The translations under genes and the position numbers were made by a program. This document shows positions 4,339 to 37,158 of a stretch of 46,068 nt of DNA, piece by piece. The notes under the pieces are model-generated. The model worked only from the letters and a program-made list of their open reading frames with translations. It made no database searches and had not been told where the DNA came from. Positions within the stretch are counted from its first letter, which is position 1; every line of letters begins with the position of its first letter. The stretch lies in assembly GCA_029977605.1 (NCBI GenBank), contig JAPOKN010000004.1:1-46068 (forward strand), written 5' to 3'. The DNA comes from Methanobacteriota archaeon. GTDB taxonomy: Archaea > Thermoplasmatota > Poseidoniia > MGIII > CG-Epi1.

Positions 4339-4871
4339 TGCAATCCTCTTAACCACATTTCGTGAAAATAGGTGTCATTAGTTAGTTCAGGATGAAATGT
4401 TAATGCCATATTTTTTCTATCAGTACATGCTACTATCTCACCTTTGCAAAATGCAATTGGTTTCGAATTTCCTACTTTCGTTATTGCTGGAGCTCTAATG
4501 AAAACGCCTCTAAAATTTGGATAATCTTCAATTTCCAATTTTTCCTCAAATGAATCTATCTGTCTTCCGTAAAAATTTCGATCAATAACATAATCCATTT
4601 TTTCAAATGTAATATCATCGCTTTTACCTAATAGTATGGCTCCAGCACAAGTTCCCATAATTGGCATATCACTTTTCATTATGAAATCCCAAAGATTAGC
4701 ATTAACAAGTAACTTACGCAGTGTAGTAGATTCGCCGCCAGGCATAATCAAGCCATCAATGTCTCTTATGTCTTCTGTATTTCTTATTTCCTTGTTACTG
4801 ATATTTAGCGAATCCAAAGCTGCACAATGCTCCGAAACTGCACCCTGAAGAGCTAATACACCGATAAGCAT
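4335..4871 (-). CDS. pdxT: PLP synthase glutaminase subunit
   Basis: GVLALQGA, PGGESTT, GTCAG, FIRAP, FHPEL. Confidence 0.95.
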   Translation of the reverse strand: MLIGVLALQGAVSEHCAALDSLNISNKEIRNTEDIRDIDGLIMPGGESTTLRKLLVNANLWDFIMKSDMPIMGTCAGAILLGKSDDITFEKMDYVIDRNFYGRQIDSFEEKLEIEDYPNFRGVFIRAPAITKVGNSKPIAFCKGEIVACTDRKNMALTFHPELTNDTYFHEMWLRGLQ

Positions 4872-4938
4872 AAATTGAATAGAATTTTACCCTTAAAATA
4901 GCTTCTCATTTTTTCTTTCAAAAAAATAAATGCCAACC

Positions 4939-5014
4939 TTTATAATATATTGGCGTCATGTATGTAATCCTTCAACGGGCTAAAACCTGTTGATTTAAGG
5001 ACTCAACCAAGGTG
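4939..5014 (+). promoter_or_regulatory. TATA box, structured 5' leader and SD of the 2374-aa surface protein gene
   Basis: TTTATAAT 4939-4946; hairpin TCCT/TCAACGGG-CTAAAA-CCTGTTGA/AGGA 4968-5001; AAGGTG 5009-5014. Confidence 0.5.
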
Positions 5015-5021
5015 TGTACAT

Positions 5022-12243: not shown

Positions 12244-13152
12244 ATGGCGGAGCCAATATCATCAATGGGAACATTGATTCTGATTACAATAGGATTATTA
12301 GTTTCATACTATTGTTTACGAAACCAGTTCATGGTTTCCCAGTCATTGGTTTTCATAAATTTTTCAATATTCGCAAGTTGGTGGATGATTTATCTACTAT
12401 CTCCAAAATTAGGAATTGAAGCTCTAATTGATCTAGGTTTCAAATCGCAATACATTGCCGAGCCACAATTTAGATTAGTTTCGATCATAACAGCTATGTT
12501 CATGCACGGTGGTTCGATGCATATTCTGATGAATATGCTAGTTCTAATTTTGTTAGGAGTTCCATTTGAAGAGAGAATAGGTTCTAGGTCCTTTTTTCTG
12601 ATTTACTTTATTTCAGGAATTTTAGGTTCTTTGATCACAGGGTCAGTATCAGTTTTCAATGCAGAAGGCCTTAACACATTGAATATAGGAGCCTCGGGCG
12701 CCGTTTTTGGAATAATGGGTGGTTTTGCCTTATTGTATCCTCGAGATGAGATACCAATGTTACTAGGTCCAATTTTTCTCCAAAGAGTCCCTGTGATTCT
12801 TGCAACAATAGTCTTTGTGGCGATGGAAACACTATATGTTGGAATGAATACACAAGACGGTATTGGCCATGGAACACACATGGCTTCATTTATAGCAGGG
12901 GTTTTTCTTTCACCATTGTTTCCTAAGAGGGGAATTGTTGAAAAACAATCAATTAGTTTTGATATAAATTATCTTACTAAATTATATGATAAAAGTAGTA
13001 AAGGTGAATACGAGTTATCAATGTTGAAACAGGCAGATGAACCAGAGTTACAATCAGCCTGGTTAGAAACATTCTTAGAGAAACAAACATGCTTAGAATG
13101 CACTGGCAAGCTAGATTCAAAGGGCGTTTGTTCAGATTGCGATACTAGTTAG
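12244..13152 (+). CDS. Rhomboid intramembrane serine protease with C-terminal CxxC..CxxC zinc ribbon
   Basis: FMHGGSMHILMNM, catalytic GASG, HMASFIAG; tail CLEC...CSDC. Confidence 0.9.
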   Translation: MAEPISSMGTLILITIGLLVSYYCLRNQFMVSQSLVFINFSIFASWWMIYLLSPKLGIEALIDLGFKSQYIAEPQFRLVSIITAMFMHGGSMHILMNMLVLILLGVPFEERIGSRSFFLIYFISGILGSLITGSVSVFNAEGLNTLNIGASGAVFGIMGGFALLYPRDEIPMLLGPIFLQRVPVILATIVFVAMETLYVGMNTQDGIGHGTHMASFIAGVFLSPLFPKRGIVEKQSISFDINYLTKLYDKSSKGEYELSMLKQADEPELQSAWLETFLEKQTCLECTGKLDSKGVCSDCDTS

Positions 13153-17261: not shown

Positions 17262-17744
17262 TCAGATAAGATTAAAATAGTCGAAAAGAAGTATGGCAAG
17301 CAAGGTTTGAAACCCTGCAGCAATGTCATCCAATAAAATTCCATGGCCTCCATGGAGTTTTTCTAAATTTCTTGCAGGCCATAATTTTGCTACATCAAAA
17401 ATACGGAATAAGATAAATGATAAAAACCAAATATGATTTTCCATTGAAAATTGAATAAGACTCAATGAAGCAATTATAATAAGATATCCAATAACTTCAT
17501 CTAGGACATATATTCCAGGATCGCCTCCATACTTTTTTTCAGCCCAAGGTGCTAATATTAAGCCAAAGTAGTACATTATAGGAATTAATGTTAGTAAAGC
17601 ATATCCTGCATTGCTTTCAAGATAATTAGTTAGTAAGAATCCTAGTACAACACCGCCTAAAGTTCCAAATGTCCCAGGAGCAATAGGAGCCCTTCCTAAA
17701 AAGAAGAAAGACAGATAAATTTCTTTGAATAACTCTTTATTCAT
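17262..17744 (-). CDS. pgpA: Phosphatidylglycerophosphatase A
   Basis: APGTFGT, DPG..VLDE, FRIFD..K.WP, GILLDD. ATG 17744 overlaps the upstream stop. Confidence 0.9.
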   Translation of the reverse strand: MNKELFKEIYLSFFFLGRAPIAPGTFGTLGGVVLGFLLTNYLESNAGYALLTLIPIMYYFGLILAPWAEKKYGGDPGIYVLDEVIGYLIIIASLSLIQFSMENHIWFLSFILFRIFDVAKLWPARNLEKLHGGHGILLDDIAAGFQTLLAILLFDYFNLI

Positions 17745-18366
17745 TTTTAGCCTCAACCCAAAAATGGTTCATTCTTTGTATGGCAGTTAGATTTCCTAAT
17801 ATTGCCAGCACGGCAACTACGATGGTAACGATAGTCTCGACATCTCCCATTAATTCACCAATCAACAATCCCATTCCTAAAATAAACCACCTTTCGGGCC
17901 TTTCAATTAATCCAATACCTTCTTGTGAAACACCTAGTCTTTCGGCAGCTGCGCGACAGTATGATGTTTGAAATGCTCCAATCATTGCAGCCATTGCCCA
18001 CATTTGTCCAGAAATAAACTCAAGGCTTTCAATAGGCAAAGGATTTACCCAATCGCAAAGAATTAGGGCACTAAAAGCGATACAATCAGCATATCTATCT
18101 AAAGTCGCATCTAAGTATCCGCCTCTTACAGAACTGGTTTTTGTCGCTCTTGCAACTAATCCATCTGCACCGTCGAAAAGAGATGCAATCATCCCTACCA
18201 AAAAAGCGTAATAAATATTTTGATCGTATAATAGCAATGCAGCATACATAGTCAAAGCAACTCCAGAAATTGTAATATGATTCGGTTTGATGCCGAATTT
18301 ACCAAGTCCTTTGGCCAGCGGATCAAACAGCTTTCCAGCAGCAGTTTTCAGAGTTTTACTAAGCAT
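17737..18366 (-). CDS. CDP-alcohol phosphatidyltransferase (PgsA / archaetidyl-glycerophosphate or -inositol-phosphate synthase type)
   Basis: PNHIT, DGADGLVAR-x8-G-x3-D-x3-D, SYCRA, GLIERPER. Start moved to ATG 18366. Confidence 0.88.
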   Translation of the reverse strand: MLSKTLKTAAGKLFDPLAKGLGKFGIKPNHITISGVALTMYAALLLYDQNIYYAFLVGMIASLFDGADGLVARATKTSSVRGGYLDATLDRYADCIAFSALILCDWVNPLPIESLEFISGQMWAMAAMIGAFQTSYCRAAAERLGVSQEGIGLIERPERWFILGMGLLIGELMGDVETIVTIVVAVLAILGNLTAIQRMNHFWVEAKNE

Positions 18367-18425
18367 GGAAGTAAAATGACATGGGAGAGGCTCTTTTAGT
18401 CCCTTGTCCAATGAGCAAATAGCTT

Positions 18426-19388
18426 ATGGACCGAGACCTGATAAAACAACAATTAGAATATGCGCTAGAAGGAACAAACTTTGATGACCAAGGGGAATTA
18501 TACAAAGGTAAAGTTCGAGATAATTACATTAACGAAGAGACGATAACTATGGTTACCACTGATCGAATTTCTGCATTTGACAGAGTTCTAGGTACTGTAC
18601 CATTCAAAGGTCAAGCTCTAACGGAATTAGCAGATTGGTGGTTTGGTGAAACTGCAGACATTGTAGCAAATCACATAATTAAGCGTCCACATCCTAATGT
18701 TTGGAAAGTTAAAAAATGTGAACCAATTCAAGTTGAGATGGTAGTTAGGGGCTATCTAACTGGCGTAACCTCAACATCAGCATGGACGGCTTACCAAAAA
18801 GGAGATAGAAATTTTTGTGGAAATGAGTTGCCAGATGGCATGCGTAAGAATGAAGCCTTTCCAGAACCTATAATCACACCGTCAACAAAGGCAGCACAAG
18901 GTGAACATGATGAATCTGTTGCCCCATCGGAATTGTACAAAAGAGGTGCTGTTGATCCTGGCCTTTACAAGGAATTAGCACGTATTTCAATGAGATTATA
19001 TGAAAGAGGAGTTTCTAGAGCAGCTGACCATGGAATGATATTTGTTGATACAAAATATGAGTTCGGAATATCTAATGGTAAAATAATGCTGATGGATGAA
19101 GTCAACACTCCAGATTCAAGTAGATATTGGATGAAAGATGATTATGAAGATAGATTTGAAAAAGGTGAAGAACCACGTAAGCTTGACAAAGAATACGTCA
19201 GAACCTGGCTTTCTGAGCAAGGTTTCACTGGAGAGGGTAAGCCACCTAAGCTTACAGATGAAATTCGAGTTGAAGCATCAGCAAGATATATGGAAGTAGT
19301 TGAAAAATTCACGGGAGAACCTATGCAATTGGATGTAGGGCCTGTAGATAAATCAATATACTCGATACTCAATCCATTTGCATATTAG
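18426..19388 (+). CDS. purC: SAICAR synthetase
   Basis: GKVRDNY, TDRISAFD, VVRGYLTG, TPSTK, DTKYEFG, DEVNTPDSSRYW. Confidence 0.97.
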   Translation: MDRDLIKQQLEYALEGTNFDDQGELYKGKVRDNYINEETITMVTTDRISAFDRVLGTVPFKGQALTELADWWFGETADIVANHIIKRPHPNVWKVKKCEPIQVEMVVRGYLTGVTSTSAWTAYQKGDRNFCGNELPDGMRKNEAFPEPIITPSTKAAQGEHDESVAPSELYKRGAVDPGLYKELARISMRLYERGVSRAADHGMIFVDTKYEFGISNGKIMLMDEVNTPDSSRYWMKDDYEDRFEKGEEPRKLDKEYVRTWLSEQGFTGEGKPPKLTDEIRVEASARYMEVVEKFTGEPMQLDVGPVDKSIYSILNPFAY

Positions 19389-19450
19389 CTGAATAGTCAG
19401 CTTTATATCATATGCTCGAGGTTTACAAATTCCTAGAGGCGTATTTAGTT

Positions 19451-20341
19451 ATGAGTCAAAAGAAATCTAGACAACAAAAAAAGCCAAAATCAGAAATTAA
19501 ATTGGCTGAAGAACGTTTTCAAAGTTGTGTAGTGAAAAGAAATAATTTCAATGACGAAGCCCGCTCCCTCCGGGATGAGCGAAATGCTTTACATGATCAA
19601 AGAGGAAAGATTATGGAAGAAATTATGAAGCATAGGGAAGAAATGAAATCAAATACTTCCGCTAAAGCTAAACATCAGAAGGTAAGAAATACTGCACAGG
19701 AAAAAGCTAAACAACTAATTTCAATAAAGCAACAGAAGCGAGGAAACAAAAAAGGTGGAAAGTCTCTTACCGATACAGTTCAGGCATTACATTCAGAAAT
19801 TCTTAATTTAGAAAGAAGAAGAGAAACTACGGAAATGCCAATTTCTAAAGAGAGAGAAGTAATGGAAAAGTTAGGAATATTGAGGAGAAGTTTGGGAGAG
19901 CAAGAGAGCGAACTTGCAACTCAAGAGCATTTAAATTTAGAAGTATCTGAATTAGATGCAGAAATAGATTCAGAATTTTCTAAGGCTAATGATGAGCATA
20001 GTGAAGTTATAGTTCTGGCCAAGCTCAATAAAAAAATATACAAAAAGGTTAGTAACCTTATGAAAGAAGCTTCCCATTTATCTACAGAAGCAGATAAAAA
20101 GCATAAAGAATTTGTAAATGTTCGTAAGAAAGCTGACAACCAACATTCTAAGGCTATGGAAATGCTAGAAGCATTAAAATTGCACAGAAAAACGGCTAAT
20201 GAAGAAAGACAAGCCAGATGGAAAGTAGTTAAAGACCATAGAAAGAACATAAAGGATGAGTTGTATAATCCTAAAAAATTAGAATCTGCAGCAGATGATG
20301 CCTTACAGCAATTAATGTCTGGCGGTAAAATAAACCTTTAA
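19451..20341 (+). CDS. Archaeal coiled-coil protein (COG1340-like)
   Basis: K/E-rich heptads along the whole length, with a GGKINL-type C-terminus. Start likely ATG 19451. Confidence 0.7.
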   Translation: MSQKKSRQQKKPKSEIKLAEERFQSCVVKRNNFNDEARSLRDERNALHDQRGKIMEEIMKHREEMKSNTSAKAKHQKVRNTAQEKAKQLISIKQQKRGNKKGGKSLTDTVQALHSEILNLERRRETTEMPISKEREVMEKLGILRRSLGEQESELATQEHLNLEVSELDAEIDSEFSKANDEHSEVIVLAKLNKKIYKKVSNLMKEASHLSTEADKKHKEFVNVRKKADNQHSKAMEMLEALKLHRKTANEERQARWKVVKDHRKNIKDELYNPKKLESAADDALQQLMSGGKINL

Positions 20342-21075
20342 TGGACGCTATAATCCTCGCAGGTGGTTTTGCTAAGAGAATGTGGCCATTAACCAAGAAT
20401 AAACCTAAGCAACTTCTTAATCTTGCGGGGAAACCAATGCTTGATTATGTTTTTGATTCTTTAGATAATCTTGATTTTGAAAGAATTATTGTTTCAGTAA
20501 ATAGTTTTTTTGCACCTCAATTTCAAGAGTATTTATTGTCTAATTCTAAAGATAAGAAAATTGAATTATTTATTGAAGAAAGCACTAATGAAAACGAAAA
20601 ATTAGGCGCTTTAGGCGCTTTAAATCTTTTATTCAAAAAGAAAAAATTGGTAGGTCCAGTTTTCATAGCTGGAGGCGATAATTTGTCAGATTTTGATTTA
20701 ATAAAAATGATAGACCTGTACGAAAAATCGAATTCGGATGTTATTGGTTTATTTGATGTTGAAAATATAGAATTAGCAAAATTATATGGTATAGCTAACC
20801 TAGAGGGGAACAGGATCATTGATTTTGTTGAAAAACCTTCCTCTCCTCCATCGACGTTGGCAGCAACTGCTTATTGGCTACTTTCAGAATCAGGGATAAA
20901 TAATTTTTTTACGTACATAGAAGGCGGAGGAGATAGAGATGCAATGGGTAATTTTTTAACTTGGAACGTTAAACGCAATCCAGTATTGTCAGTATCATTT
21001 AAGGGAAGTTGGTATGATATTGGTGGTTTAGAATCTTATTCAGAGGCGCAGAATTGGTTAGAAAAAAGACCTTAG
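20341..21075 (+). CDS. Sugar-phosphate nucleotidyltransferase (single NTP_transferase domain)
   Basis: AIILAGG.A.R.WPLT...PK.L, GDN, FVEKP, WYDIG. Confidence 0.9.
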   Translation: MDAIILAGGFAKRMWPLTKNKPKQLLNLAGKPMLDYVFDSLDNLDFERIIVSVNSFFAPQFQEYLLSNSKDKKIELFIEESTNENEKLGALGALNLLFKKKKLVGPVFIAGGDNLSDFDLIKMIDLYEKSNSDVIGLFDVENIELAKLYGIANLEGNRIIDFVEKPSSPPSTLAATAYWLLSESGINNFFTYIEGGGDRDAMGNFLTWNVKRNPVLSVSFKGSWYDIGGLESYSEAQNWLEKRP

Positions 21076-21103
21076 GTTTTTTTTAGAACGGCTCTAGTGT
21101 TAA

Positions 21104-22762
21104 GTGATGACTAGTGATTTATCTATACTTGCAGAAGTTCTTGTCATCAGTTCCTTAATTATTTTATCATTAGGATATTTTTTTTCAAGCAAGAACCATA
21201 TTATTTTTGGTAAGAAGTTTCCTGTAAAAATAGGTCACAATCTGAATATTATAGGTTGGTTACTTCTAGGTTTTTTTTGGTGGATACAAGTAGAGCATTA
21301 CATTTTAATAAATGATCCAGCAAATGGTTTTTTCTGTGCATTAGCGATGCCGTTTTTCGGTTACCTGGCAATACATGAATATCTAAGTATACGTTGGAAT
21401 GCTAACTATGAACCACTCAGATGGCTAGCTGCGATGACAGTTGTTGCTGGAGGAATTTATTTTTTCGTTGAGCGAGTCCCTATTCTCTCAGGTTGGTTAA
21501 TTCAAATAGTTGCTGAACAATCAATATGGATATTAAATTCATTTGATATTCCAACATCTTTAGGTAATTTAGATTACGGTGATGGATCAAAATATTACAG
21601 GCCAGCTTCCAATCATGAAGAAGTTCAAATCGCCATTGAAGGTGATGAATGGCGTAATCCTGATTCAGTATCACTTACTATTGTATTAGCATGTACGGCT
21701 TTACAAAGTATGATAATATTTGTGGGCGGAGTTGTTTGTACTAAGGCTCCTGCAGATAGAAGATTTTATGCATTTCTTGCTACAGTCCCTGCAATTTATC
21801 TTTTAAATTTAATAAGAAATGCAGTTGTTATTTGGTTAACATATGAGCACATATGGGGGGATGAAACTTTTTTCTATGCTCACAGCGTTTTAGGGAAAGT
21901 TGGGAGTTTAATTGCCCTGGTATTTCTAGCAATAGCAGTATTTCACTTTTTGCCAGAAATGCAGGATTCCATATTAGGTGTAATTGATTTACCTCTTAGA
22001 AAGGCTCCGGATGGCTTACGAGGACTTCCTTTTGCTAAAGGTATGCCTTCCCAAGTAGCATATCTCTTAGTTACTGGCCTAGTATTATTTCCATTTGGTT
22101 TCTTTTCAAAATCAGTTGAAGAGCAAGGTTTTGATTCAAATCTTCCTCTTGAAAGCATGTATACCTTATCAATAATCTTGTTATTAGTTTCTTTCTTTTT
22201 GTTGTATTTTTACCGAGACCCTGAAAGAAAAATTGAAGCTGGAATTGTTAGTCCTGCTGATGGTCTTGTACAAAGAGCAGAAATAAAGAGTGGAATGGTC
22301 CGCCTATCTATCTTTATGAATGTACATAATGTTCATGTAAACAGGTCTCCTTTTGATGGGAAAATTTTGTCTATTAAACATAAATCTGGAGGTTACCTTC
22401 CAGCTTTTCACAAGGATTCAGATAGGAACGAACGTCTGATGACTAAGATAGAAACCTCAATTGGTGTAATGAAGGTAATTCAGATAGCTGGAGTTTTAGT
22501 TAGACGAATTGTTAGTTACGTTAAACCAGATACAGAAGTTACTAAGGGGGAAAGAATAGGCTTAATCCATTTCGGTTCTAGAGTTGATCTATCATTTGAA
22601 TCTGCAGGAATAGATATTTTAGTTAAAAAGGGAGACAGAGTATTGGCCGGACAACAATTAGCAGAATATACACCAATGTCTTCATTATCAGTTACTGAAA
22701 AGTTATTTGAGGCACCTAAGCGTATTCTGTCAAAATTACAGGCTTCCCAAAGTGATGAGTGA
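21104..22762 (+). CDS. artA-psd: Fusion of archaeosortase A (aa ~1-300) and phosphatidyl/archaetidylserine decarboxylase proenzyme (aa ~308-525)
   Basis: N half is multi-TM with IVLAC197TALQS, NLIR238N and FFYAH260..GK. C half has FYRDPER, SPADG, IFMNVHNVHVNRSP, NER, QIAG..VRRI and the FG/S492RVD self-cleavage site. One uninterrupted frame. Confidence 0.9.
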   Translation: MMTSDLSILAEVLVISSLIILSLGYFFSSKNHIIFGKKFPVKIGHNLNIIGWLLLGFFWWIQVEHYILINDPANGFFCALAMPFFGYLAIHEYLSIRWNANYEPLRWLAAMTVVAGGIYFFVERVPILSGWLIQIVAEQSIWILNSFDIPTSLGNLDYGDGSKYYRPASNHEEVQIAIEGDEWRNPDSVSLTIVLACTALQSMIIFVGGVVCTKAPADRRFYAFLATVPAIYLLNLIRNAVVIWLTYEHIWGDETFFYAHSVLGKVGSLIALVFLAIAVFHFLPEMQDSILGVIDLPLRKAPDGLRGLPFAKGMPSQVAYLLVTGLVLFPFGFFSKSVEEQGFDSNLPLESMYTLSIILLLVSFFLLYFYRDPERKIEAGIVSPADGLVQRAEIKSGMVRLSIFMNVHNVHVNRSPFDGKILSIKHKSGGYLPAFHKDSDRNERLMTKIETSIGVMKVIQIAGVLVRRIVSYVKPDTEVTKGERIGLIHFGSRVDLSFESAGIDILVKKGDRVLAGQQLAEYTPMSSLSVTEKLFEAPKRILSKLQASQSDE

Positions 22763-22765
22763 ATT

Positions 22766-23557
22766 ATGATTAATTTAAAAAAAGTATTTAGGCCATTAAC
22801 TTTGATTTCTTACGCAGATATGGCAACTTTACTAAGTGCTACTTTGGGTTTTTTAGCAATAACATACATGATTGATGGCAACGAGAAAAGTTACATTGTA
22901 GCTATGTTAATATTGCCATTTTGTGCGATTATTGACGGAATGGATGGTGCATTGGCTAGAAAATTTGGTACTAAACATCATTATGGAAAATACCTTGATT
23001 CAATTTCAGATTCAATATGTTTTGGAATCGCTCCGTCCATTTTGGTTTATTCCTTGTATTATAATTTAGATAAAGGCCCAGCAATAGATATTTTTGATGA
23101 TAACTTTGAGGTAAACTTAAGGTATAATATAGATAATATAATTGCAATTTCTTCAGCCTTATTAATCGCAATTTTAAGTATAATCAGATTAGCTAATTTT
23201 ACTATAGGTGATCAGGGTAGTAACGAATATTTTTCAGGTCTACCTTCCCCTGGGTTAACTATGTTTATAGTTGTAATTTCAATAAAGTATTCACAGATTA
23301 ATGATTATAATAATATACTAATTCCCTTATCAATTGGTTTGGTTTCACTACTAACTGCATCAACTATACCCTATGCTAAAGCTAGAAAACAATTTAAGTT
23401 TCCTATACTTTTTGGATTAATTGTACTGATAATAACAATAGTTCTTAGATATTTAGAACAAGCGTTTTGGCTCACAATATGGCCTTTAGCCTTACTTTTG
23501 TACTTAGTCTATTTTTTGCTTTTGCCGTTACTAATTTTAAACAGATATTTTGATTAG
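22766..23557 (+). CDS. pssA: CDP-diacylglycerol/CDP-archaeol--serine O-phosphatidyltransferase
   Basis: DGMDGALAR..G..LDSISDSICFGIAP, RLANF and FSGLPSP (PssA subclass II); 3 nt downstream of the psd fusion. Confidence 0.85.
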   Translation: MINLKKVFRPLTLISYADMATLLSATLGFLAITYMIDGNEKSYIVAMLILPFCAIIDGMDGALARKFGTKHHYGKYLDSISDSICFGIAPSILVYSLYYNLDKGPAIDIFDDNFEVNLRYNIDNIIAISSALLIAILSIIRLANFTIGDQGSNEYFSGLPSPGLTMFIVVISIKYSQINDYNNILIPLSIGLVSLLTASTIPYAKARKQFKFPILFGLIVLIITIVLRYLEQAFWLTIWPLALLLYLVYFLLLPLLILNRYFD

Positions 23558-26500
23558 TGTTTTCTTCTGTAAACAATTAGTGCTAGGAGCCCTACAACAG
23601 ATAAGAATGAAGGTCCAGGAAGTAAAGAGTCCTCGCCTTCAGATGCAGTTTCTTCAGATATAATATCTCCTTCGACTGTAACTGTTAGAGTAACTTGATC
23701 TAATATCTCGAAGACATACCCTCCACTTGAAGATTCACTTGCAGATAAAATATTCAGTGTGTATGTATAAGTTCCAGGCAAAACTTCCCTTGCAATAACT
23801 GCTAAAGCCCCCCAATCTAGCGTTTCACCGGCCTGAACTTTTAATGGATATAATTTAGTATCGGATGGAGAAATAGCTAATCTCCATTCTTTACTATTTT
23901 CATCAAAATAGAGATCAGTATCTTTAGTTCCATCTGGCATAATCAATTCAAGCGCCACATCTACATCCACAGTTCCTTTATTATCAATAATGAAGCCAGT
24001 AGATGCAGTTTGTATTTTAGAAGCTTCAATAGTGATTTCAAAATTTGCTGAATCTAGACATAGATTACTCAAATCAGCGAAGCAAAGAGAAACATCTTGA
24101 ATTTCTTCAATCGGAGTTTGTACGACTATGTTTGATATAGATTTTGCTAATTCATTACCATTATCATCAAAAATTAATATTTCTAATCGATATGTTGCAT
24201 CAGAAGTTCCTAATGGAACATTAATGGTTGCGCTTACAACTTTAGCTTCATCAACATCTAAATCAAATGTTGCAGGTTCTAACATAACCCAACTTCCAGC
24301 TTGACTTTCAGCAACTACTTCTATGGCCTGTTTTCCATTTCCGTCACTTAAAATATTGAATACGATGGTATCAGATTCACCGGGTGCGATTGTTCTTAAG
24401 CCAGATCCTTCTCTTCTTAGAGTTACACCGGTTTCTAATTCTTCTACTGAAACTCTGATTGTTTTATCATCTTTTGCAGTTTCGTCACCTCTTGATGTGG
24501 CTTCAACTTCAATATACACATTTCCATCATCTTGGTCATCAGGAATTGAAATTATTCCATTGACAGTAGCTTCACCATCTGCTCCAATAGTAATTCCGTT
24601 TTCTTCAAATTGGACCCATTCATTTTCATCACCTAAAACTTCAAGATCAAATGTATCGGTTTCATCTCCGTTATTGTATATTGTTACACTAAATTCTACA
24701 TCCTGTCCAGCTACAGATTCAGTGTTTGTTGGACTTACAGCTATTTCGACTTCATAGTTTGTAGGATTATCTGTCACATCTATAGTTAAATCTAAAGTTT
24801 CAGTAACGTCTCCGGCAGTCAGAATAATAGTTAGATCATACAAGTCATATTCAGCATCATCTGGTATTGTTATTTGTAGTTCTATATCTTTACTTTCATT
24901 ACTTTTCATTTCCATTTGATTTGTCATAGATCCCCAATCTTCAGCAGATCCAACCATATCAAGATAGAAGGTATCAGTTCCAGAAGCTCCGTTTTTGATA
25001 ACAATATTAAATTCTAATTTTGCACCAGGTTCACCTTCTTTATCTTGATTAAAAGTAGATATCTCAGGTAGATGAACCATTTCAACATCTAAATCAATTT
25101 CTTTATCATCATTTCTATGATTCTCGTCCTCTTTTGTAGTCTCTACAATAATTATGTATTCACCGGGATTATTACTTTCCCATTCCCATTCTAATGTTTC
25201 TTCTTCACCAGATTCTAATGGTCCTGTTATCTGTTGATTGCTAGTCCAGACTTCGTTCTCTTCAGAATCCAGAATAGTTGCTTTAACATCAATAGCGGCC
25301 TGAGTATCAGATCCATAATTTTTTATTATACTTGAAAACGAAATAGTTGAATTTTCTTTTGCGTCGCTCTCCAATTTGAGTACTTTAACTCCGACATCAT
25401 CTGCAGCTGCAGAGGCCCGTAACCAGTCGAGAGCCCTTCCTACCATGTCCTCACGATCGTTTGAAGTGTTAACCTTACCAAATGTAAAAGGAGAAACAAT
25501 TAATCTGTAATCACCATCATAATGTAAAGACATATTGAAAACCTGTGCAGCATCATCCCAGTTTTCCATTCCATCTTCCATATCGTCAGATAGATGACTT
25601 GTAGTTCCTCCGTTAGAAGTTAATTCAACATCATCAAAATACCAACCCTCATAGGCATCAATAACCCCATCTGCTCCAAATCTCCATTTTAATTTTACAT
25701 CTTCGCCTGAGAAATTTGTTAGATCAAATGTAGCTTGTACCCACCCTCCAGATTGTCCGTAGTAACCAGGTTCTCCATCTAAACCGCTAACTGACTGAGC
25801 AGGATATCCTCCATTAGGCTGTATAACTTCCCACGTTTCTCCTCCATCAGTTGTAATTTGTACGTTTCCTCCATCATAAGCATAGCTTTCACTCTCAGTA
25901 TCATAGTAGTGTTGGAATGATAGCTGGGGGCTGTTTCCAAGTGTGAATTCATCTGAAGTATAAACAGAGTAATCCCATCCATTACCATACTCTCCATCGC
26001 CTTTAGATTCATCCCCTATCCACATTGAATGAGTAGGGCTATTTGCTTTTCGATTTGGATCGCTAACAGTATCTACAATATGCCACCAATTACTTCTATC
26101 AGTATAAAATGCACCAATGGCTTCATCGTTAGGCCTTATCCAATCAGCATAGTCAGAGAAATATATGCTTGTATCTCCCATATTATATTCAGCGTCGCCA
26201 AATATCTCATCTCCGTCTACTCCAATTAGCGGATCGGGCGTTCCAACATTGTTTCTAATGTAATCAATTTTAAAATAATCATATTCAAAATCGCCGGCTT
26301 CTCTTGGCCCGTCACTTTCGTTTAATGCAGTTAAAAATTGTTGTCCCATAATCCAAAGGCTTCCGCCTTGATCCAAATATTCACTAATACATTCTTGCCA
26401 GTTAGTAGTATTTCTTTGATTATGATCGCCTTGAGTCCATATAACAACATCATAGTTACTCATCAAATCTAAAGTAGGATATGGCCCTAATTCACCGAAT

Positions 26501-29500
26501 GATCCCAGTTCACTGTCATAAGGCATGGTGTAAACATCGTAGCCTCTGCTTTCACCATCAGTAAAGTATTCCTGTAAAGCGAACTTTAGTCTATTATCTA
26601 TCTTATCTACATCGTAGTAGTTGTTATATCCATTATTTTTACCGAAGTTTGCATCAACTAATAGAACTTTATCTCCACCTTCTTGTGAATAATAGAATGG
26701 AGTTGCGGAGATGTCACTACTGTCTTCAGTTTCAGGATCATCTCTACTTGTTACAGTTACTGTAAAGGAATGTTCATTTCCAGTAGGTTCCAATGTAGGA
26801 GCAATTACAACTACAGTAAAGTTTTGACTTGAGCCTGAACTTAGATAAATAGAGCTTACATGAGAAATAATTTCCCAATCATCCTCTTGTTCAGAATCTA
26901 AACTTATGTCGTAATATCCACTATTTTCTCCAGTATTTGTGGCAGTAAAGTTGAATGCTACAGATTCACCAGATAGTACATCTTTTGCTTGTTCTTGTAC
27001 CGCTAAAGCAACATTATAGCCACTTTCGGCTATATCTATATTTTCTTCTTTTGGATTATTACCAGCTCTTTCATCTCCAGTTAATAATGTTTCGACTCTT
27101 ATTGTGTAGGTACCTTCAGGTCCACCTTCCCAGGTCCACTCTAATGTAGAATTATCTTTTGATTCAAGTGAATCAATAGTTTGAGTTTCGTTGTAAACTT
27201 CAGTACCATCGTCTCTCGTTACTGTGCCTCTTATATCAAAATCATCTTGATCATTTGTTCCAAAATTGTAGATTTCAGAAGTAAAAGTTACAGCTCTTCC
27301 TGGTTTAGCTGTGCTAGGCGAATCTAATTCTTTAGTTCCAACATCGTTAGGTATCGGTGGAAGACTATAAACTGCAAAATTATCAACATACAATCCTTCA
27401 AGTTGAGTGAAGGTATTAGATTCAAATCTAAGTCTGAATGAAACATCGTCCTCATACTCACTTACATCACTTTCAAAATAGAGCCACCCATTCTCGTCAG
27501 CTCCATCGTATTCGCTAGAGTAATCTCCATCATCGCCGGGTAAAGTTTCTAAAAGTTCCCACTCGCCGGATTGATTTATTTCTAAGTTGACAAAATCATT
27601 TGGACCGTCAATTGCAAACCATACCATTGCAGAAACATATTTTTCAGCACCATCTCCTATGTCAAACGTAGGTGATTCTAAAGAATCATTTAGTGAAGCA
27701 CTGTAAGTTTCAGTACTTGGATTTCCTAAATACCATGAATAATCTCCAGAATAGGATTTGTTGCTATAGTAATTCCACTCACTTTCAACAATGTCGGCCA
27801 TCCAATCTCCGTCGCCATCTTCAAAATCATCTTCAAAATGAGTTTCAGTTCCACTGTTAACTTCAATATTATCAATATACCATCCTTCATAGGCTTCTAC
27901 ACTTGCATCTGTTCCGAACCTAAATTTGAATCTTACATCTTGATTAGTATAGTTTGCAAGACTAAAGGATGCAGTTTCCCAATCAGCAGTATCTCCTTCC
28001 CCAGAAGTTCCAGTGTATCCTGGTTCATTATCCAATCCAACTACGGCATCATCAGGGTATCCGCCGTCAGGATTGATGACTTCCCAAGTTTCTCCGTCGT
28101 CAGTTGTAATTTGAACATTACCTCCATCCCAACTAAATTCAGTACTATACCAAATATCAACAGACATCTGTGGGTTAGTTTGACCAAGTGAAATCTCTTC
28201 ACTTGTATAAACAGAAAAATCCCAATTATTGTCATATTCACCATCTCCCTTAGATTCATCTCCAACCCACATCGCATGAGTTGGACTAGATGCTTCTCTG
28301 TTACTATCTTCGTCAGTATCGATTAAATGCCATGGATTGCTTAATGATTTGTAATTAGTCCACCCATTAACTCCGCTTTCCATGTCATCACTAAATTCAA
28401 CATCGACACTTCTCATCATTGAATCAATTATATCATTTTCTGGAACTTCATCATCATCATCTATGACTTTAGCTTCAAACCAAAAAGTTCCGTAATCATC
28501 AGTTTCCCATTCCCATGTAAGTGTTAAATCTTCACCTGGAGCTAAATCTTCAACATCTTTATTTCCTAAATTTTCAACAACGTTTCCTGCTCCATCATAG
28601 ATTTTACCACTAATTTCAGAATTCATAGTAACATCTCCACTATTTGTAACAATTACACTCATTTCTCTTTCTTCATCTTTCTCAGCGATCATTGGAGTAA
28701 CACGAGCATCTTTTACTTCTAAATCATACGTAACATAGGTATTAACTTTGATAATCTTTTCATTATTTTCCTCTTTTTCATCATTTGAAATTGTGGCCTT
28801 ACTTTTTATCTGATAAACATAGTCTTCATCATCTGGAGTATCCCATTCAAATTCAACAAAAGCACCAGTGCCTGAATCTAGTGAAATAGTTTCAGATTCA
28901 GTAAACGTGTACGAGCTATTCAAACATGTAATTTCTAACGAAACTTGAATACTATCTTGGTCTTCAGTACCTCTGTTTCTTACTGTAACATTTACAATGT
29001 TTTCAACGTTAGGTTCAACAGTCTCTTCATCTTTAGGCGTATTAAATCTGCTTAAACTTACATCATTTTCTAGTTGTTCAACAAGGTATTCAACAACGTT
29101 TTCCATAAATTCGTCCCTATCATCACTACTTGTAATAGAACTAAAATCAATAGTCATGAATACCAATTTGAATTCATCTTCAGTTCTTATGGTTGAAATA
29201 TTATAGTCTCCATTTGAACTTAAGACTTTTTCAAATCCGCTTCTAGGATTAATATCGTCTGCAAAATCTGAGCTTATCGCATCAGCATCGTATTCTATAC
29301 CATCAGAAATAGGATCATCGTCTTCACCATATACTACAGCAGGTGTTGCCCTGTCATTATCGGCATAACTAACGCCAAGATAATCGTGTTCAAAGTCACC
29401 AGCGCTACGATCACCGTCTGATGTATCAAAATCATACAAAATATCCATTCCTATAACCCACATAGCTCCTCCATCCTCTAGATATTCTGCGACATTTGAT

Positions 29501-30156
29501 TTGTCATTATCAGTAAAAGTTACATCAGTGTCTCCACTTTGGTAGTCAGTTCCACATACCCAAATAATCATTTGATACTCTGATAAAACATCTATTCCAG
29601 GAGCATCAGCACTACTATTGACTCTTACTATATCATATGCAATAGGATTAGTAAGGTTGTCAAGGGCATTGGCATAGTATGAGTCAGTTTCAGTCCTCGA
29701 ACCACCATTATTTCCGCTGTTATCATCGTCTAAAAGCAATATGGGCGGATATGAAACGGCAATATCTTCGGTTTCCTCATTATTATCCTCGTCAGATTCA
29801 GTAATTTGTTCTTCTTCATCAACAATTACTTTAATTTTGTGAGATCCTCCCACTGCAGTCCATTCAGTTTCAGCGTCTGCAGTATTTCCACCGGGAATAG
29901 TTATTGTTTCTTTAGCAATAAAGTTTCCATCATAGTAAAAGCTAACATTTGTAGTTACAGTAATTAGTCCACTAGTCCCCCCATCATTTGCGACCTCTGC
30001 GGTAATAGTTATCTCATCACCTCCTGTAGGTGAATCATCACTAAAACTTATCTCATTTATTGATAAGTCAGGATCATTTTCATCAGCTAATGTGTTCATA
30101 GCTGAAAGTGGTAGCATCAGCATGGCTAGCAAGAAAGCAGTTATTTTACGAGACAT
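23554..30156 (-). CDS. Giant acidic secreted surface protein (2200 aa): CARDB/Ig-like domains, two alpha/beta domains, Asp-box jelly-roll repeats, NEW3-like repeats, C-terminal sorting signal
   Basis: Signal peptide; CARDB pattern (PDL.I..I.FS...ESDEDNN); two copies of L..Y..[IV]IW..G...EYL..GG..W..G; repeated GGNVQITTD.GETW; N.G...DTF.L repeats; tail LLPGPSF-TM-RRKH. Confidence 0.85.
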   Translation of the reverse strand: MSRKITAFLLAMLMLPLSAMNTLADENDPDLSINEISFSDDSPTGGDEITITAEVANDGGTSGLITVTTNVSFYYDGNFIAKETITIPGGNTADAETEWTAVGGSHKIKVIVDEEEQITESDEDNNEETEDIAVSYPPILLLDDDNSGNNGGSRTETDSYYANALDNLTNPIAYDIVRVNSSADAPGIDVLSEYQMIIWVCGTDYQSGDTDVTFTDNDKSNVAEYLEDGGAMWVIGMDILYDFDTSDGDRSAGDFEHDYLGVSYADNDRATPAVVYGEDDDPISDGIEYDADAISSDFADDINPRSGFEKVLSSNGDYNISTIRTEDEFKLVFMTIDFSSITSSDDRDEFMENVVEYLVEQLENDVSLSRFNTPKDEETVEPNVENIVNVTVRNRGTEDQDSIQVSLEITCLNSSYTFTESETISLDSGTGAFVEFEWDTPDDEDYVYQIKSKATISNDEKEENNEKIIKVNTYVTYDLEVKDARVTPMIAEKDEEREMSVIVTNSGDVTMNSEISGKIYDGAGNVVENLGNKDVEDLAPGEDLTLTWEWETDDYGTFWFEAKVIDDDDEVPENDIIDSMMRSVDVEFSDDMESGVNGWTNYKSLSNPWHLIDTDEDSNREASSPTHAMWVGDESKGDGEYDNNWDFSVYTSEEISLGQTNPQMSVDIWYSTEFSWDGGNVQITTDDGETWEVINPDGGYPDDAVVGLDNEPGYTGTSGEGDTADWETASFSLANYTNQDVRFKFRFGTDASVEAYEGWYIDNIEVNSGTETHFEDDFEDGDGDWMADIVESEWNYYSNKSYSGDYSWYLGNPSTETYSASLNDSLESPTFDIGDGAEKYVSAMVWFAIDGPNDFVNLEINQSGEWELLETLPGDDGDYSSEYDGADENGWLYFESDVSEYEDDVSFRLRFESNTFTQLEGLYVDNFAVYSLPPIPNDVGTKELDSPSTAKPGRAVTFTSEIYNFGTNDQDDFDIRGTVTRDDGTEVYNETQTIDSLESKDNSTLEWTWEGGPEGTYTIRVETLLTGDERAGNNPKEENIDIAESGYNVALAVQEQAKDVLSGESVAFNFTATNTGENSGYYDISLDSEQEDDWEIISHVSSIYLSSGSSQNFTVVVIAPTLEPTGNEHSFTVTVTSRDDPETEDSSDISATPFYYSQEGGDKVLLVDANFGKNNGYNNYYDVDKIDNRLKFALQEYFTDGESRGYDVYTMPYDSELGSFGELGPYPTLDLMSNYDVVIWTQGDHNQRNTTNWQECISEYLDQGGSLWIMGQQFLTALNESDGPREAGDFEYDYFKIDYIRNNVGTPDPLIGVDGDEIFGDAEYNMGDTSIYFSDYADWIRPNDEAIGAFYTDRSNWWHIVDTVSDPNRKANSPTHSMWIGDESKGDGEYGNGWDYSVYTSDEFTLGNSPQLSFQHYYDTESESYAYDGGNVQITTDGGETWEVIQPNGGYPAQSVSGLDGEPGYYGQSGGWVQATFDLTNFSGEDVKLKWRFGADGVIDAYEGWYFDDVELTSNGGTTSHLSDDMEDGMENWDDAAQVFNMSLHYDGDYRLIVSPFTFGKVNTSNDREDMVGRALDWLRASAAADDVGVKVLKLESDAKENSTISFSSIIKNYGSDTQAAIDVKATILDSEENEVWTSNQQITGPLESGEEETLEWEWESNNPGEYIIIVETTKEDENHRNDDKEIDLDVEMVHLPEISTFNQDKEGEPGAKLEFNIVIKNGASGTDTFYLDMVGSAEDWGSMTNQMEMKSNESKDIELQITIPDDAEYDLYDLTIILTAGDVTETLDLTIDVTDNPTNYEVEIAVSPTNTESVAGQDVEFSVTIYNNGDETDTFDLEVLGDENEWVQFEENGITIGADGEATVNGIISIPDDQDDGNVYIEVEATSRGDETAKDDKTIRVSVEELETGVTLRREGSGLRTIAPGESDTIVFNILSDGNGKQAIEVVAESQAGSWVMLEPATFDLDVDEAKVVSATINVPLGTSDATYRLEILIFDDNGNELAKSISNIVVQTPIEEIQDVSLCFADLSNLCLDSANFEITIEASKIQTASTGFIIDNKGTVDVDVALELIMPDGTKDTDLYFDENSKEWRLAISPSDTKLYPLKVQAGETLDWGALAVIAREVLPGTYTYTLNILSASESSSGGYVFEILDQVTLTVTVEGDIISEETASEGEDSLLPGPSFLSVVGLLALIVYRRKH

Positions 30157-30198: not shown

Positions 30199-30663
30199 TT
30201 ACACCCTTCGGGTGTAAATTCGATGAAATAATTTAGAACCACTTTCTAGAGGTTTTTTTTCGCTTCCTTTCCATTCATTTCCTATCTTTGGGAAGTAAAT
30301 ACAATTCTTTCCGGTTACGCTATCAGGTACAAGAGTCATATCTATACAATCAGCTAAATTCATAGCCTCTTTGTAAATTCCAGCACCTCCTATAAACCAA
30401 ATATCTCCTTCGCAAGTATCTATAGCCTCATCTATACTTCTGAAGCATTCTACTTCATCAAGTGAACTTCTTGTTATTACAATATTTCTTCTTTCTGGTA
30501 GGGGTTTTATTGGTAAAGATTCCCAAGTATTTCTGCCCATAATAACAGTTTTTCCAATAGTCAGTCTCCTAAATCTCTTTAAATCTTCAGAATAATACCA
30601 AGGAATTGTATTATCTTTTCCAATAACTCCCTCAGGTGACGTTGCTACTAGTATTCCTCTCAT
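30199..30663 (-). CDS. folA: Dihydrofolate reductase
   Basis: VIG....IPW...EDL..F, IMGRNTWES, PLPER.NIV, IGGAGIY. Confidence 0.95.
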   Translation of the reverse strand: MRGILVATSPEGVIGKDNTIPWYYSEDLKRFRRLTIGKTVIMGRNTWESLPIKPLPERRNIVITRSSLDEVECFRSIDEAIDTCEGDIWFIGGAGIYKEAMNLADCIDMTLVPDSVTGKNCIYFPKIGNEWKGSEKKPLESGSKLFHRIYTRRV

Positions 30664-31532
30664 ACGGCAACTTTGAAAGGTATAAACGGTTCAGGGTTGT
30701 AATTTTTCAATTCAAATTTTGACATTATAGTTTCAGTGTCTTTGTCTAACAAATCCATTACATCATCTAATGTTTTTATATTAGAATCAATTTTAAGTTC
30801 AGGTAAAGGTTTAATCTTTCGCTTTGTTTGTTCCATCAAGCCAGGTATGTGGTCGTATTCTTCCATGCTTCCGTCGGCCTTCTTTGTGTATATGTGCGCA
30901 TCAACTAAAGTATGTCCAAAAGTTCCAACTTTCATGCCAGATAAATGGGCAAAAAGATGTAATAAGAATGAATATCCTGCAATATTATAAGGAACACCTA
31001 GGGCGACATCACAACTTCTTTGAGTCAAGTGTACGCATAATCTAGGTTCTCCATTTTTATCATACTGAACATTAAAAATGAATAGTAAATGACATGGAGG
31101 TAAACCACTAGTTTGAGCATTTCCTGGAGCCCAAGCAGTTATTACCATTCTTCTGCTATTTGGATTTTTTTTTAAGGTTTCTAAAACATACTTAACTTGA
31201 TCATTATACTCATCTTTTCCGTGAACTGGAAATTTTCTCCAAAAATTACCGTAAGCGCTAGGCACAAACCCATCTTCATCTGCCCAGTGATCCCAAAACT
31301 TACAACCGTGCTTTTTTAATAGTCCAATATGCAAATCTCCGGACAAAAACCATAGATTTTCGATAACAATATTTTTCCAGGAAATTTCTTTTGTTGTCAG
31401 CAATGGAAATCCTTCATTTAGGTTGATTGAATAGTTAATATTAAATGCTGAAATTGTATCGACACCAGTTCGATTTTCCTTTCTAGTTCCACGTTTTAAG
31501 ACTTCGTTAACTAAGTCAAGGTATTGTTTCAC
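30660..31532 (-). CDS. thyA: Thymidylate synthase ThyA
   Basis: NRTGV, FPLLTTK, SRR, LPPCH, QRSCDVALGVPYN, HIY; GTG start; ATGA overlap with folA. Confidence 0.97.
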   Translation of the reverse strand: MKQYLDLVNEVLKRGTRKENRTGVDTISAFNINYSINLNEGFPLLTTKEISWKNIVIENLWFLSGDLHIGLLKKHGCKFWDHWADEDGFVPSAYGNFWRKFPVHGKDEYNDQVKYVLETLKKNPNSRRMVITAWAPGNAQTSGLPPCHLLFIFNVQYDKNGEPRLCVHLTQRSCDVALGVPYNIAGYSFLLHLFAHLSGMKVGTFGHTLVDAHIYTKKADGSMEEYDHIPGLMEQTKRKIKPLPELKIDSNIKTLDDVMDLLDKDTETIMSKFELKNYNPEPFIPFKVAV

Positions 31533-36399: not shown

Positions 36400-37158
36400 T
36401 TAATTTCTACGCAGTAGTGTTAATAATCCTATTGATAAGATGGAAAGGCTAAAACTAATACTTGGTGTTTTTTCATTTTCTCTTTCATTTGTAGGGGAAC
36501 TAACAAAGCCTTGTAAAGTTATAGATTTCACGTGAACTTCATAGAGAGGTCTATTCAGAGGGTCATTGGATGTAGGAACTTGGGCTACGGCTTTCACTAG
36601 TTCCATGCCTTCTCTTACAACTCCAAATACAGCATATCCGGGGTCGTCATCCTGTGAACGATTTCCATTGTCTAATCCATGCTGTGGTCCGTCACAAATG
36701 TAAAATTGACTTGAGGCCGAGTCAGGATCTACACTTCTAGCCATACCCACAGCTCCATTTATGTGAGTAAGATTTGCATTAGCTTCGAATGGAATATTCT
36801 CATCAGATCCATTACTCCCGCATGAGGGGTCGCTTGCAGGATAAGCCCCAACTGCAGTACAAGTTGGGTCGCCTGTTTGAATGACAAAATCATCAATTAC
36901 ACGGTGAAAGAAAATTCCATCATAGAATGATTGATTTACTAAACTAACAAAATTGTTAACTGTCACGGGAGCCCAATTATGAAATAATTCGATTACAATA
37001 TCTCCCTGAATGTCGTTACCACCACCAATTCCTGCATCATATGTTAGATTAATAACAACTACAGGATTTCCTTTGTAAGATTGTTCCATAGGGCTTGCCT
37101 CAGAGCTTCCATTTGGAATAAAAAGCATCAATATCAAAAGAAAGACGGCAATTCTCAC
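36400..37158 (-). CDS. Secreted cyclophilin-type peptidyl-prolyl isomerase with C-terminal sorting signal
   Basis: Signal peptide; APVTVNNF, FYDGIFFHRVI..FVIQTGD, VGMAR..DPDSASSQFYI, YAVFG; tail TPSIS-TM-RRN. Confidence 0.92.
   Translation of the reverse strand: MRIAVFLLILMLFIPNGSSEASPMEQSYKGNPVVVINLTYDAGIGGGNDIQGDIVIELFHNWAPVTVNNFVSLVNQSFYDGIFFHRVIDDFVIQTGDPTCTAVGAYPASDPSCGSNGSDENIPFEANANLTHINGAVGMARSVDPDSASSQFYICDGPQHGLDNGNRSQDDDPGYAVFGVVREGMELVKAVAQVPTSNDPLNRPLYEVHVKSITLQGFVSSPTNERENEKTPSISFSLSILSIGLLTLLRRN

Follow-up and report, generated by a model that had tools for sequence, protein, structure and literature searches.

The closest described relatives of the locus considered here are the archaeosortase A (ArtA) systems of Methanosarcina and Haloferax. 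The placement of artA next to pssA was observed by Haft, and the synteny artA-pssA-pssD is found in Methanosarcina (PMC7157517). In Haloferax volcanii, where ArtA, PssA and PssD are the loci HVO_0915, HVO_1143 and HVO_0146, processing by ArtA depends on both HvPssA and HvPssD. In the published model, which is still speculative, archaetidylethanolamine would be the amine nucleophile that resolves the thioester, and this 2020 paper does not decide between a need of ArtA for the lipid product and a need for contact with PssA or PssD (PMC7157517). Statements on this and the other papers cited here apply to the parts of them that were accessible. We analysed a window of 46,068 nucleotides (contig JAPOKN010000004.1, positions 1 to 46,068 of the forward strand; assembly GCA_029977605.1) from a probable Marine Group III (MG-III) archaeon of the phylum Thermoplasmatota, whose genome assembly measures 1.09 Mb, is 87.6% complete and has ∼36% G+C. 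Positions 21107-23557 of this window quite probably hold the artA-pssD-pssA operon of the known archaeosortase lipid-anchoring system, with ArtA and the decarboxylase fused.

Its enzymes come from the three families that make up the system of Methanosarcina and Haloferax; ArtA scores over the TIGR04125 cut-off, the genes are adjacent, as in Methanosarcina, and the model with archaetidylethanolamine as amine nucleophile can be carried over directly. Unlike in those genera, ArtA and PssD form one polypeptide here, the order is artA-psd-pssA, PssA and PssD score under the NF038086 and NF038088 cut-offs, and most of the candidate tails depart from the canonical PGF form. NCBIfam already holds ‘protein sorting system' models of the synthase and the decarboxylase, and the trio itself is an already known system; the new detail is the ArtA-PssD fusion. 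Literature searches on archaeosortases together with the decarboxylase or PssD returned no description of a natural fusion, and those on archaeosortases together with Marine Group returned none. The accessible text of PMC7157517 describes no natural fusion and makes no mention of Thermoplasmatota (its Fig. S1 may show more taxa), and the accessible parts of PMC6098224 and PMC9385802 describe no natural ArtA-PssD fusion.

Two bacterial systems cited as analogues in PMC7157517 are more remote. In the rhombosortase/GlyGly-CTERM system a C-terminal tail is likewise removed and a glycerophosphoethanolamine-containing moiety is involved, whereas the fold is a non-homologous rhomboid one, the signal is different and there is no sequence relation. 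The Gram-positive sortase A/LPXTG system likewise has a cysteine transpeptidase whose thioester is resolved by an amine, but its fold is unrelated and its acceptor is the lipid II peptide rather than a phospholipid head group.

The ArtA-PssD fusion and the adjoining synthase

The genes and domains at the centre of the locus are the following.

21104/21107-22762, plus strand: artA-pssD fusion gene (TIGR04125 and PF02666 in one open reading frame)
21233-21985, plus strand: archaeosortase A domain, amino acids 44-294 (TIGR04125; Cys197, Arg238, His260)
21986-22156, plus strand: linker, then the beginning of the two-helix membrane anchor that belongs to the decarboxylase (by alignment to the N terminus of the sister-family psd)
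22157-22663, plus strand: phosphatidyl/archaetidylserine decarboxylase domain, amino acids 352-520 (PF02666; His411, Gly491-Ser492)
22766-23557, plus strand: pssA-type CDP-alcohol (archaetidyl)serine synthase (PF01066)

The fusion gene encodes 552 amino acids from a GTG at 21104 or 551 from an ATG at 21107; the ATG is probably the start, because 551 amino acids is the length of the database homologues. Its archaeosortase half scores 141.4 bits against TIGR04125 (cut-off 75; 142.9 bits in the genome search) and 66.1 bits against the general signature TIGR04178, while the decarboxylase half reaches 134 bits against PF02666 (cut-off 22) and 193.6 bits against NF003685 (cut-off 183). Conservation of the catalytic residues was counted on separate domain alignments of representatives at 50% identity, the full-length alignment being poor in the ArtA half. 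Cys197 (codon 21692-21694) is conserved in 49 of 49 aligned ArtA representatives, and Arg238 (21815-21817) and His260 (21881-21883) in 48 of 48 each; Cys-173 is the active-site residue of Haloferax ArtA (PMC7157517), to which Cys197 would correspond. In the decarboxylase half, His411 (22334-22336) is present in 98/98 aligned phosphatidylserine decarboxylase (PSD) representatives, and Gly491 and Ser492 (22577-22579), which form the self-cleavage site, in 91/97 and 97/97, respectively.

An AlphaFold2 model of the fusion, built from the full-length alignment that is poor in the ArtA half, has a mean predicted local distance difference test (pLDDT) score of 88.2 and a predicted template modelling (pTM) score of 0.86. 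Compared with solved structures in the PDB by Foldseek, the modelled C-terminal domain matches the crystal structures of Escherichia coli PSD (7cny, 7cnw and 6l06) with a probability of 1.00, sharing their fold over amino acids ∼350-520 (TM-score on target 0.42-0.46), the Gly-Ser site and the histidine; the ArtA half had no solved counterpart in this comparison. Identity to the E. coli enzyme is 14-15%, and in contrast to it the decarboxylase here is of the short archaeal/Gram-positive type, has two N-terminal membrane helices and stands behind an eight-helix archaeosortase. The model places helices 317-333 and 349-369 around the linker and decarboxylase anchor, and the linker with its two membrane helices aligns with the N terminus of psd from the sister family, where this is a gene of its own, so that the join reads as a simple end-to-start fusion. 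With its catalytic residues intact and its model confident, the fusion looks active. From the helices and the charge distribution we infer a ten-helix membrane protein (8 + 2) whose ArtA cysteine would face outwards and whose decarboxylase domain would be cytoplasmic.

PF02666 has no match other than the fused decarboxylase in the genome, which is 87.6% complete. In public annotation the homologues of the fusion go by one name or the other, ‘archaeosortase A' or ‘phosphatidylserine decarboxylase', and none carries both. Those 96-98% identical to it bear source names such as archaeosortase A of ‘Marine Group III euryarchaeote CG-Epi4' or ‘Candidatus Poseidoniales archaeon', and the organism is therefore very probably an epipelagic member of MG-III. 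A 98%-identical copy (P0008) carries the source label ‘Candidatus Marinimicrobia bacterium', which is probably a binning or labelling error affecting an archaeal contig.

The TGA of the fusion ends at 22762 and the ATG of pssA stands at 22766, 3 nt further. The pssA product has 263 amino acids, matches PF01066 at 49.4 bits (cut-off 22) and contains in translation the motif DGMDGALAR-x8-G-x3-D-x3-D (pattern DGxDGxxAR-x8-G-x3-D-x3-D). The original prediction, made from the letters of the window, had taken it for a serine-type synthase. It does group with these enzymes: its four top NCBIfam matches are all serine synthases (93.9, 88.0, 75.6 and 68.6 bits, each under its curated cut-off), no non-serine model scores higher than 37.2 bits, and its closest solved relative is Methanocaldococcus jannaschii PssA (7b1k, E = 1.1e-8), followed by a PI-phosphate synthase (0.04). 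The best matches of the two other CDP-alcohol transferases of the genome are AIP synthases. CarS is present (143.7 bits) and no separate CdsA was found in the genome, where the sole PF01148 match (22.7 bits, below the cut-off) falls inside the CarS frame; CDP-archaeol is therefore the likely substrate of the synthase.

Gene order and fusion across the phylum

In the genomes compared, the fusion is fixed in the MG-III family of the window; the sister of this family has the genes split, and two other families carry a fusion. A full-length single frame was found in 21 of the 24 other genomes of the same genus (two more gave partial matches and one, 70% complete, none), and the fusion also occurs in genus g13 of the same family. 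The sister family (genomes G025 and G026) keeps artA, psd and pssA as genes of their own that overlap by 4 nt; their neighbours are folP and the gene of an FG-GAP/PKD protein whose tail is a zinc ribbon. Further fusions are found in family f20 (G089, G099 and G107; 444-447 amino acids) and in family f13 (G080; 418 amino acids). Since the genes are unfused in the family most closely paired with that of the window, its sister, this distribution would need at least two fusion events. Both domains were also present in two (P0122 and P0126) of 13 long proteins (at least 364 amino acids) scanned among the best 150 of 1.84 billion representatives of 50%-identity clusters; the scan did not include the other 137.

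Some longer frames do not add to this count. Stop-to-stop frames of 574-784 amino acids around psd in some families were considered as more fusions and rejected, artA and psd being separate in the four such loci that were inspected (G077, G155, G200 and G075), as is pssA in three of them. Separately, the unfused ArtA of the sister family (G026, L022:7360-8811; G025, L023:221-1669) has a long N-terminal extension and, where the window protein has its decarboxylase, a low-complexity acidic, Asn/Gly-rich C-terminal tail.

For the wider distribution, 201 genomes were drawn from the phylum and the best 28 ArtA loci outside the window's family were looked at. In 24 of these, artA has psd directly behind it in the same orientation (one of the remaining four has too little flank), and pssA follows psd in 13. 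Recurring in many families of the phylum, the order artA-psd-pssA is, as judged from these loci, far beyond chance, and gene order marks it as a widespread operon in this phylum. The close association that the original prediction had noticed in one window is thus found again in other families.

Neighbouring genes, surface proteins and sorting tails

Around the operon, the window contains the following features.

17262-17756, minus strand: PgpA-like phosphatase
17737-18411, minus strand: AIP-synthase-like CDP-alcohol transferase
18426-19388, plus strand: purC
19451-20341, plus strand: DUF7121 coiled-coil gene (PF23435, 31.3 bits)
20341-21075, plus strand: sugar-1-phosphate nucleotidylyltransferase, NTase (PF00483, 122.9 bits)
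21075-21089, plus strand: GG-T8-AGAAC element in the spacer between NTase stop and artA start (kept in 10/10 family loci)
23554-30156, minus strand: 2200-amino-acid secreted CARDB/InhA-like-MAM/choice-of-anchor-T surface protein, here called the giant (Pfam and NCBIfam matches)
23557-23625, minus strand: sorting-type tail of the giant, LLPGPSF-LSVVGLLALIVY-RRKH (LPGPSF motif at 23605-23622)
30199-30663, minus strand: DHFR
30660-31532, minus strand: thyA

The features and junctions described in the original prediction all proved correct, in junction sequences, domain matches and the tail of the giant. The coiled-coil gene ends on the base at which the NTase gene starts (20341, within TAATG), and 28 nt separate the NTase stop from the artA frame. 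For the coiled-coil gene the start at 19451 is the better choice, because orthologues align only from residue 12-14 of the longer frame; a TATA-like TTTATATC lies upstream of this ATG, at 19404-19411. The full block, from purS and the PgpA-like and AIP-synthase-like genes through thyA, is collinear in 8/8 loci of the genus and in genus g13, and the part from the AIP-synthase-like gene and purC to ArtA is collinear in 12/12 further loci of the family. As purC, DHFR and thyA are kept equally well, synteny at the family level is uninformative on function. The overlapping PgpA-like and AIP-synthase-like genes (17262-18411, minus strand) form a second polar-head-group module 3 kb from artA-pssD-pssA, and the position of this pair is kept throughout the window's family.

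The coiled-coil and NTase genes had been counted as parts of the locus, a claim that we abandon. In the sister family, the contigs with artA-psd-pssA are not those that hold purC, the coiled-coil gene and the NTase gene; the last two are side by side there and in one of three Marine Group II loci. Of 61 genomes of the class, 56 have the coiled-coil protein, regardless of where artA lies, and both genes are missing from the surroundings of artA in 13 loci taken from other families (a non-random set, picked for matching both fusion halves). Within the window's family, a GG-T(6-8)-AG(AAC) element is present in 10/10 loci; its T-run stops ∼20-31 nt short of the artA ATG, in a spacer that otherwise varies. 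In archaea such a T-rich element can be a TATA box for a leaderless mRNA, an oligo-T terminator or both, and the GG-T8-AGAAC element of the window would accordingly be a TATA-like promoter and/or oligo-T terminator at the boundary of two transcription units. A scan for bacterial-type promoters and terminators (20 sites, 21.2 expected) is uninformative for an archaeon. On account of the different contigs in the sister family, the near-universal coiled-coil protein, the absence of both genes near artA elsewhere and the T-rich element, we judge them to belong to a separate purC-coiled-coil-NTase module, as ordinary neighbours outside the anchoring system. The closest solved relatives of the NTase are mannose-1-phosphate guanylyltransferases and glucose-1-phosphate thymidylyl/uridylyltransferases; the coiled-coil protein gave only chance-level matches against the PDB, and a literature search returned no paper mentioning DUF7121.

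On the other side of the operon, the TAG of pssA (23555-23557) overlaps the TAA of the giant (23554-23556, minus strand) by 2 nt, the two genes being convergent, and one 269-nt RNA-library contig spans both stops. The giant has a signal-like N terminus and ends in ...DSLLPGPSFLSVVGLLALIVYRRKH, which comprises the short motif LPGPSF, the hydrophobic stretch LSVVGLLALIVY and the basic end RRKH. The readable orthologues of the same genus (6/6) all show this arrangement, with LLPGPS[FL] ahead of the hydrophobic and basic parts, and genus g13 has LPAPSL. The giant adjoins pssA and is convergent with it in the window's genus, g1 (8/8 loci), and in g13, while no tail-bearing surface gene lies within the fetched 6.5-13 kb at 13 ArtA loci of other families; on these comparisons, the adjacency is a trait of the window's family only. 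One adjacent pair is by itself not strong evidence, given ∼19 tail-bearing genes among roughly 1,200 genes (a rough estimate).

The last 63 residues of the giant give no match to TIGR04126 (PGF-CTERM) at E ≤ 10, the giant is outside the five matches of the genome to this model, and its motif is PGPSF, without the PGF tripeptide. A census of the genome found seven PGF tails; 12 others, that of the giant included, follow the pattern [LT]P[SGA][ILP][SG][FL], continue with a hydrophobic stretch and a basic end, and are missed by the PGF-CTERM model (examples in the window: 23557-23652, 36403-36498 and 12048-12143). Short tail models of both flavours gave only weak matches in four Marine Group II genomes, where the PGF positive control was equally weak (best E 5.6e-4). 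One Marine Group II genome has a tail that reads exactly LPSLSF.

The genome encodes a second protein of the archaeosortase family (contig 10, 93935-94774; 279 amino acids), recognised only by TIGR04178 (29.8 bits). It was found in 23/28 and 2/2 genomes of the MG-III families f1 and f2, and in 0/10 and 3/20 (weak matches) of the Marine Group II families f3 and f4; it may represent an undescribed archaeosortase subfamily. The gene (L029:5936-6775) sits after a Nudix gene (5485-5898), with a choice-of-anchor-T protein bearing an LPGFDP tail upstream of that (4546-5433).

Mechanism and competing explanations

Under the published model (PMC7157517), the proteins of the operon would act in the following way. 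PssA would condense CDP-archaeol with serine, and the decarboxylase domain, self-cleaved at Gly491-Ser492, would make archaetidylethanolamine on the cytoplasmic face. Once this lipid had been flipped, Cys197 of ArtA would cut the C-terminal tail of a secreted protein on the outer face, forming a thioester, and the ethanolamine amine would resolve it to leave the protein amide-linked to the lipid. The fusion would hold the source of the lipid donor beside the transpeptidase.

Several results weigh against this reading. The decarboxylase half scores 176.7 bits against the ‘protein sorting system' model NF038088, below its cut-off of 240, and the synthase is below all curated cut-offs considered (NF038087, 93.9 against 240; TIGR00473, 88.0 against 107; NF038086, 75.6 against 200). 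No tail of the genome passes TIGR04126 (best score 21.7, cut-off 24.5), and this includes the seven PGF tails, which were recognised by eye and alignment. Clustering is not universal, artA being solitary in 5/5 Marine Group II loci. Assembled RNA-library contigs on this stretch are short and fragmentary, and none reaches 31 nt beyond the NTase/artA spacer in both directions. One serine-type synthase and one decarboxylase were found in the genome, and these may equally serve the bulk membrane. Finally, the predicted layout puts the active sites of the two halves on different sides of the membrane, in which case the fusion cannot channel substrate directly.

The last two points, with the scores under the sorting-system cut-offs, are what would be expected if PssA and the decarboxylase were the cell's only route to ethanolamine lipids and their adjacency to ArtA, including the fusion, reflected co-regulation of envelope biogenesis rather than direct supply of the anchor. 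We regard this as unlikely in view of the artA-psd order in 24/28 loci, 13 of them with pssA, and of a fusion found in three families, one of which has an unfused sister; a bulk and an anchoring role are, moreover, compatible. Still less probable is that the whole of 19451-30156 works as one unit, with a coiled-coil scaffold, an NTase supplying sugar nucleotides for glycosylation of the client, the anchoring enzymes and the giant as a dedicated client. The tight packing (the 1-nt overlap and the 28-nt spacer), the full block in 8/8 same-genus loci and g13, the coiled-coil-NTase-ArtA order in all 12 further family loci and the sugar-1-phosphate type of the NTase speak for such a unit. But purC, DHFR and thyA are as well kept in the block, the sister family divides purC-coiled-coil-NTase and artA-psd-pssA between contigs, the coiled-coil protein is near-universal in the class, the 13 loci of other families have no coiled-coil, NTase or tail-bearing surface gene near artA, the conserved T-rich element splits the NTase from artA, and the giant is on the opposite strand. 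Of the ‘self-contained' locus originally proposed, serine-lipid synthesis, decarboxylation and archaeosortase side by side thus stand; the 10.7-kb unit with coiled-coil and NTase does not.

A more serious contender, though we still lean away from it, concerns the giant: its LPGPSF-type tail and the 11 similar ones would be handled by the second archaeosortase, leaving ArtA only the seven PGF tails. The genome does have two sortase-family genes and two tail flavours, the second sortase runs through MG-III and is absent or weakly matched in the Marine Group II families, and the giant's tail lacks the PGF tripeptide and any PGF-CTERM match. Yet the flavours can be read as one hexapeptide series (LPGFGF, LPGPSF, LPSLSF, TPSIGF), three PGF tails reach ∼25 bits with a model built from the second flavour, the Marine Group II genome G225 has both a PGF and an LPAPGL tail with one sortase-family gene, and beyond the Nudix gene that precedes the second sortase, the next gene upstream has a PGF-type tail. 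On single examples, the hexapeptide series and G225 lean towards ArtA cutting the giant, which is a plausible ArtA client. Of the earlier claim that the giant is the client, the adjacency and the tripartite sortase-type tail remain in favour; it is weakened by an adjacency confined to this family and a tail that the PGF-CTERM model does not recognise.

With the artA-pssD-pssA operon of a lipid-anchoring system as the preferred reading, a bolder version can be put forward tentatively, although we think it rather improbable. The fusion might be a single ‘anchor synthase', in which the decarboxylase would feed new archaetidylethanolamine into the archaeosortase helix bundle and on to the outer-face cysteine, bypassing the bulk pool, and which would accept a broadened LPxxx[FL] signal (LPGFGF to LPSLSF/LPGPSF) missed by PGF-CTERM models. 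If so, its recurrence in two families at least, and probably in three, would be the mark of a physical complex of ArtA with PssD, one that Haloferax and Methanosarcina would form from unfused partners.

A natural fusion and an operon across much of Thermoplasmatota are in any case comparative evidence that ArtA and PssD act together; for a mechanism that is still speculative, the fusion is useful comparative support rather than a surprise, and it offers a compact single gene for complementation tests. The abundant, uncultured MG-III appear to anchor large surface proteins in this way, with tails undetected by standard models, so that current annotation would under-count their anchored surface proteome.

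The window contains a second giant (5022-12146, plus strand; 2374 amino acids), with cupredoxin and BNR matches and an end reading TPSFALGIV...LRREEE. A gene for a rhomboid-family intramembrane protease (12244-13152, plus strand) follows it after 98 nt. Bacterial rhomboid relatives process C-terminal sorting tails, and the two genes could therefore form a protease-substrate pair.

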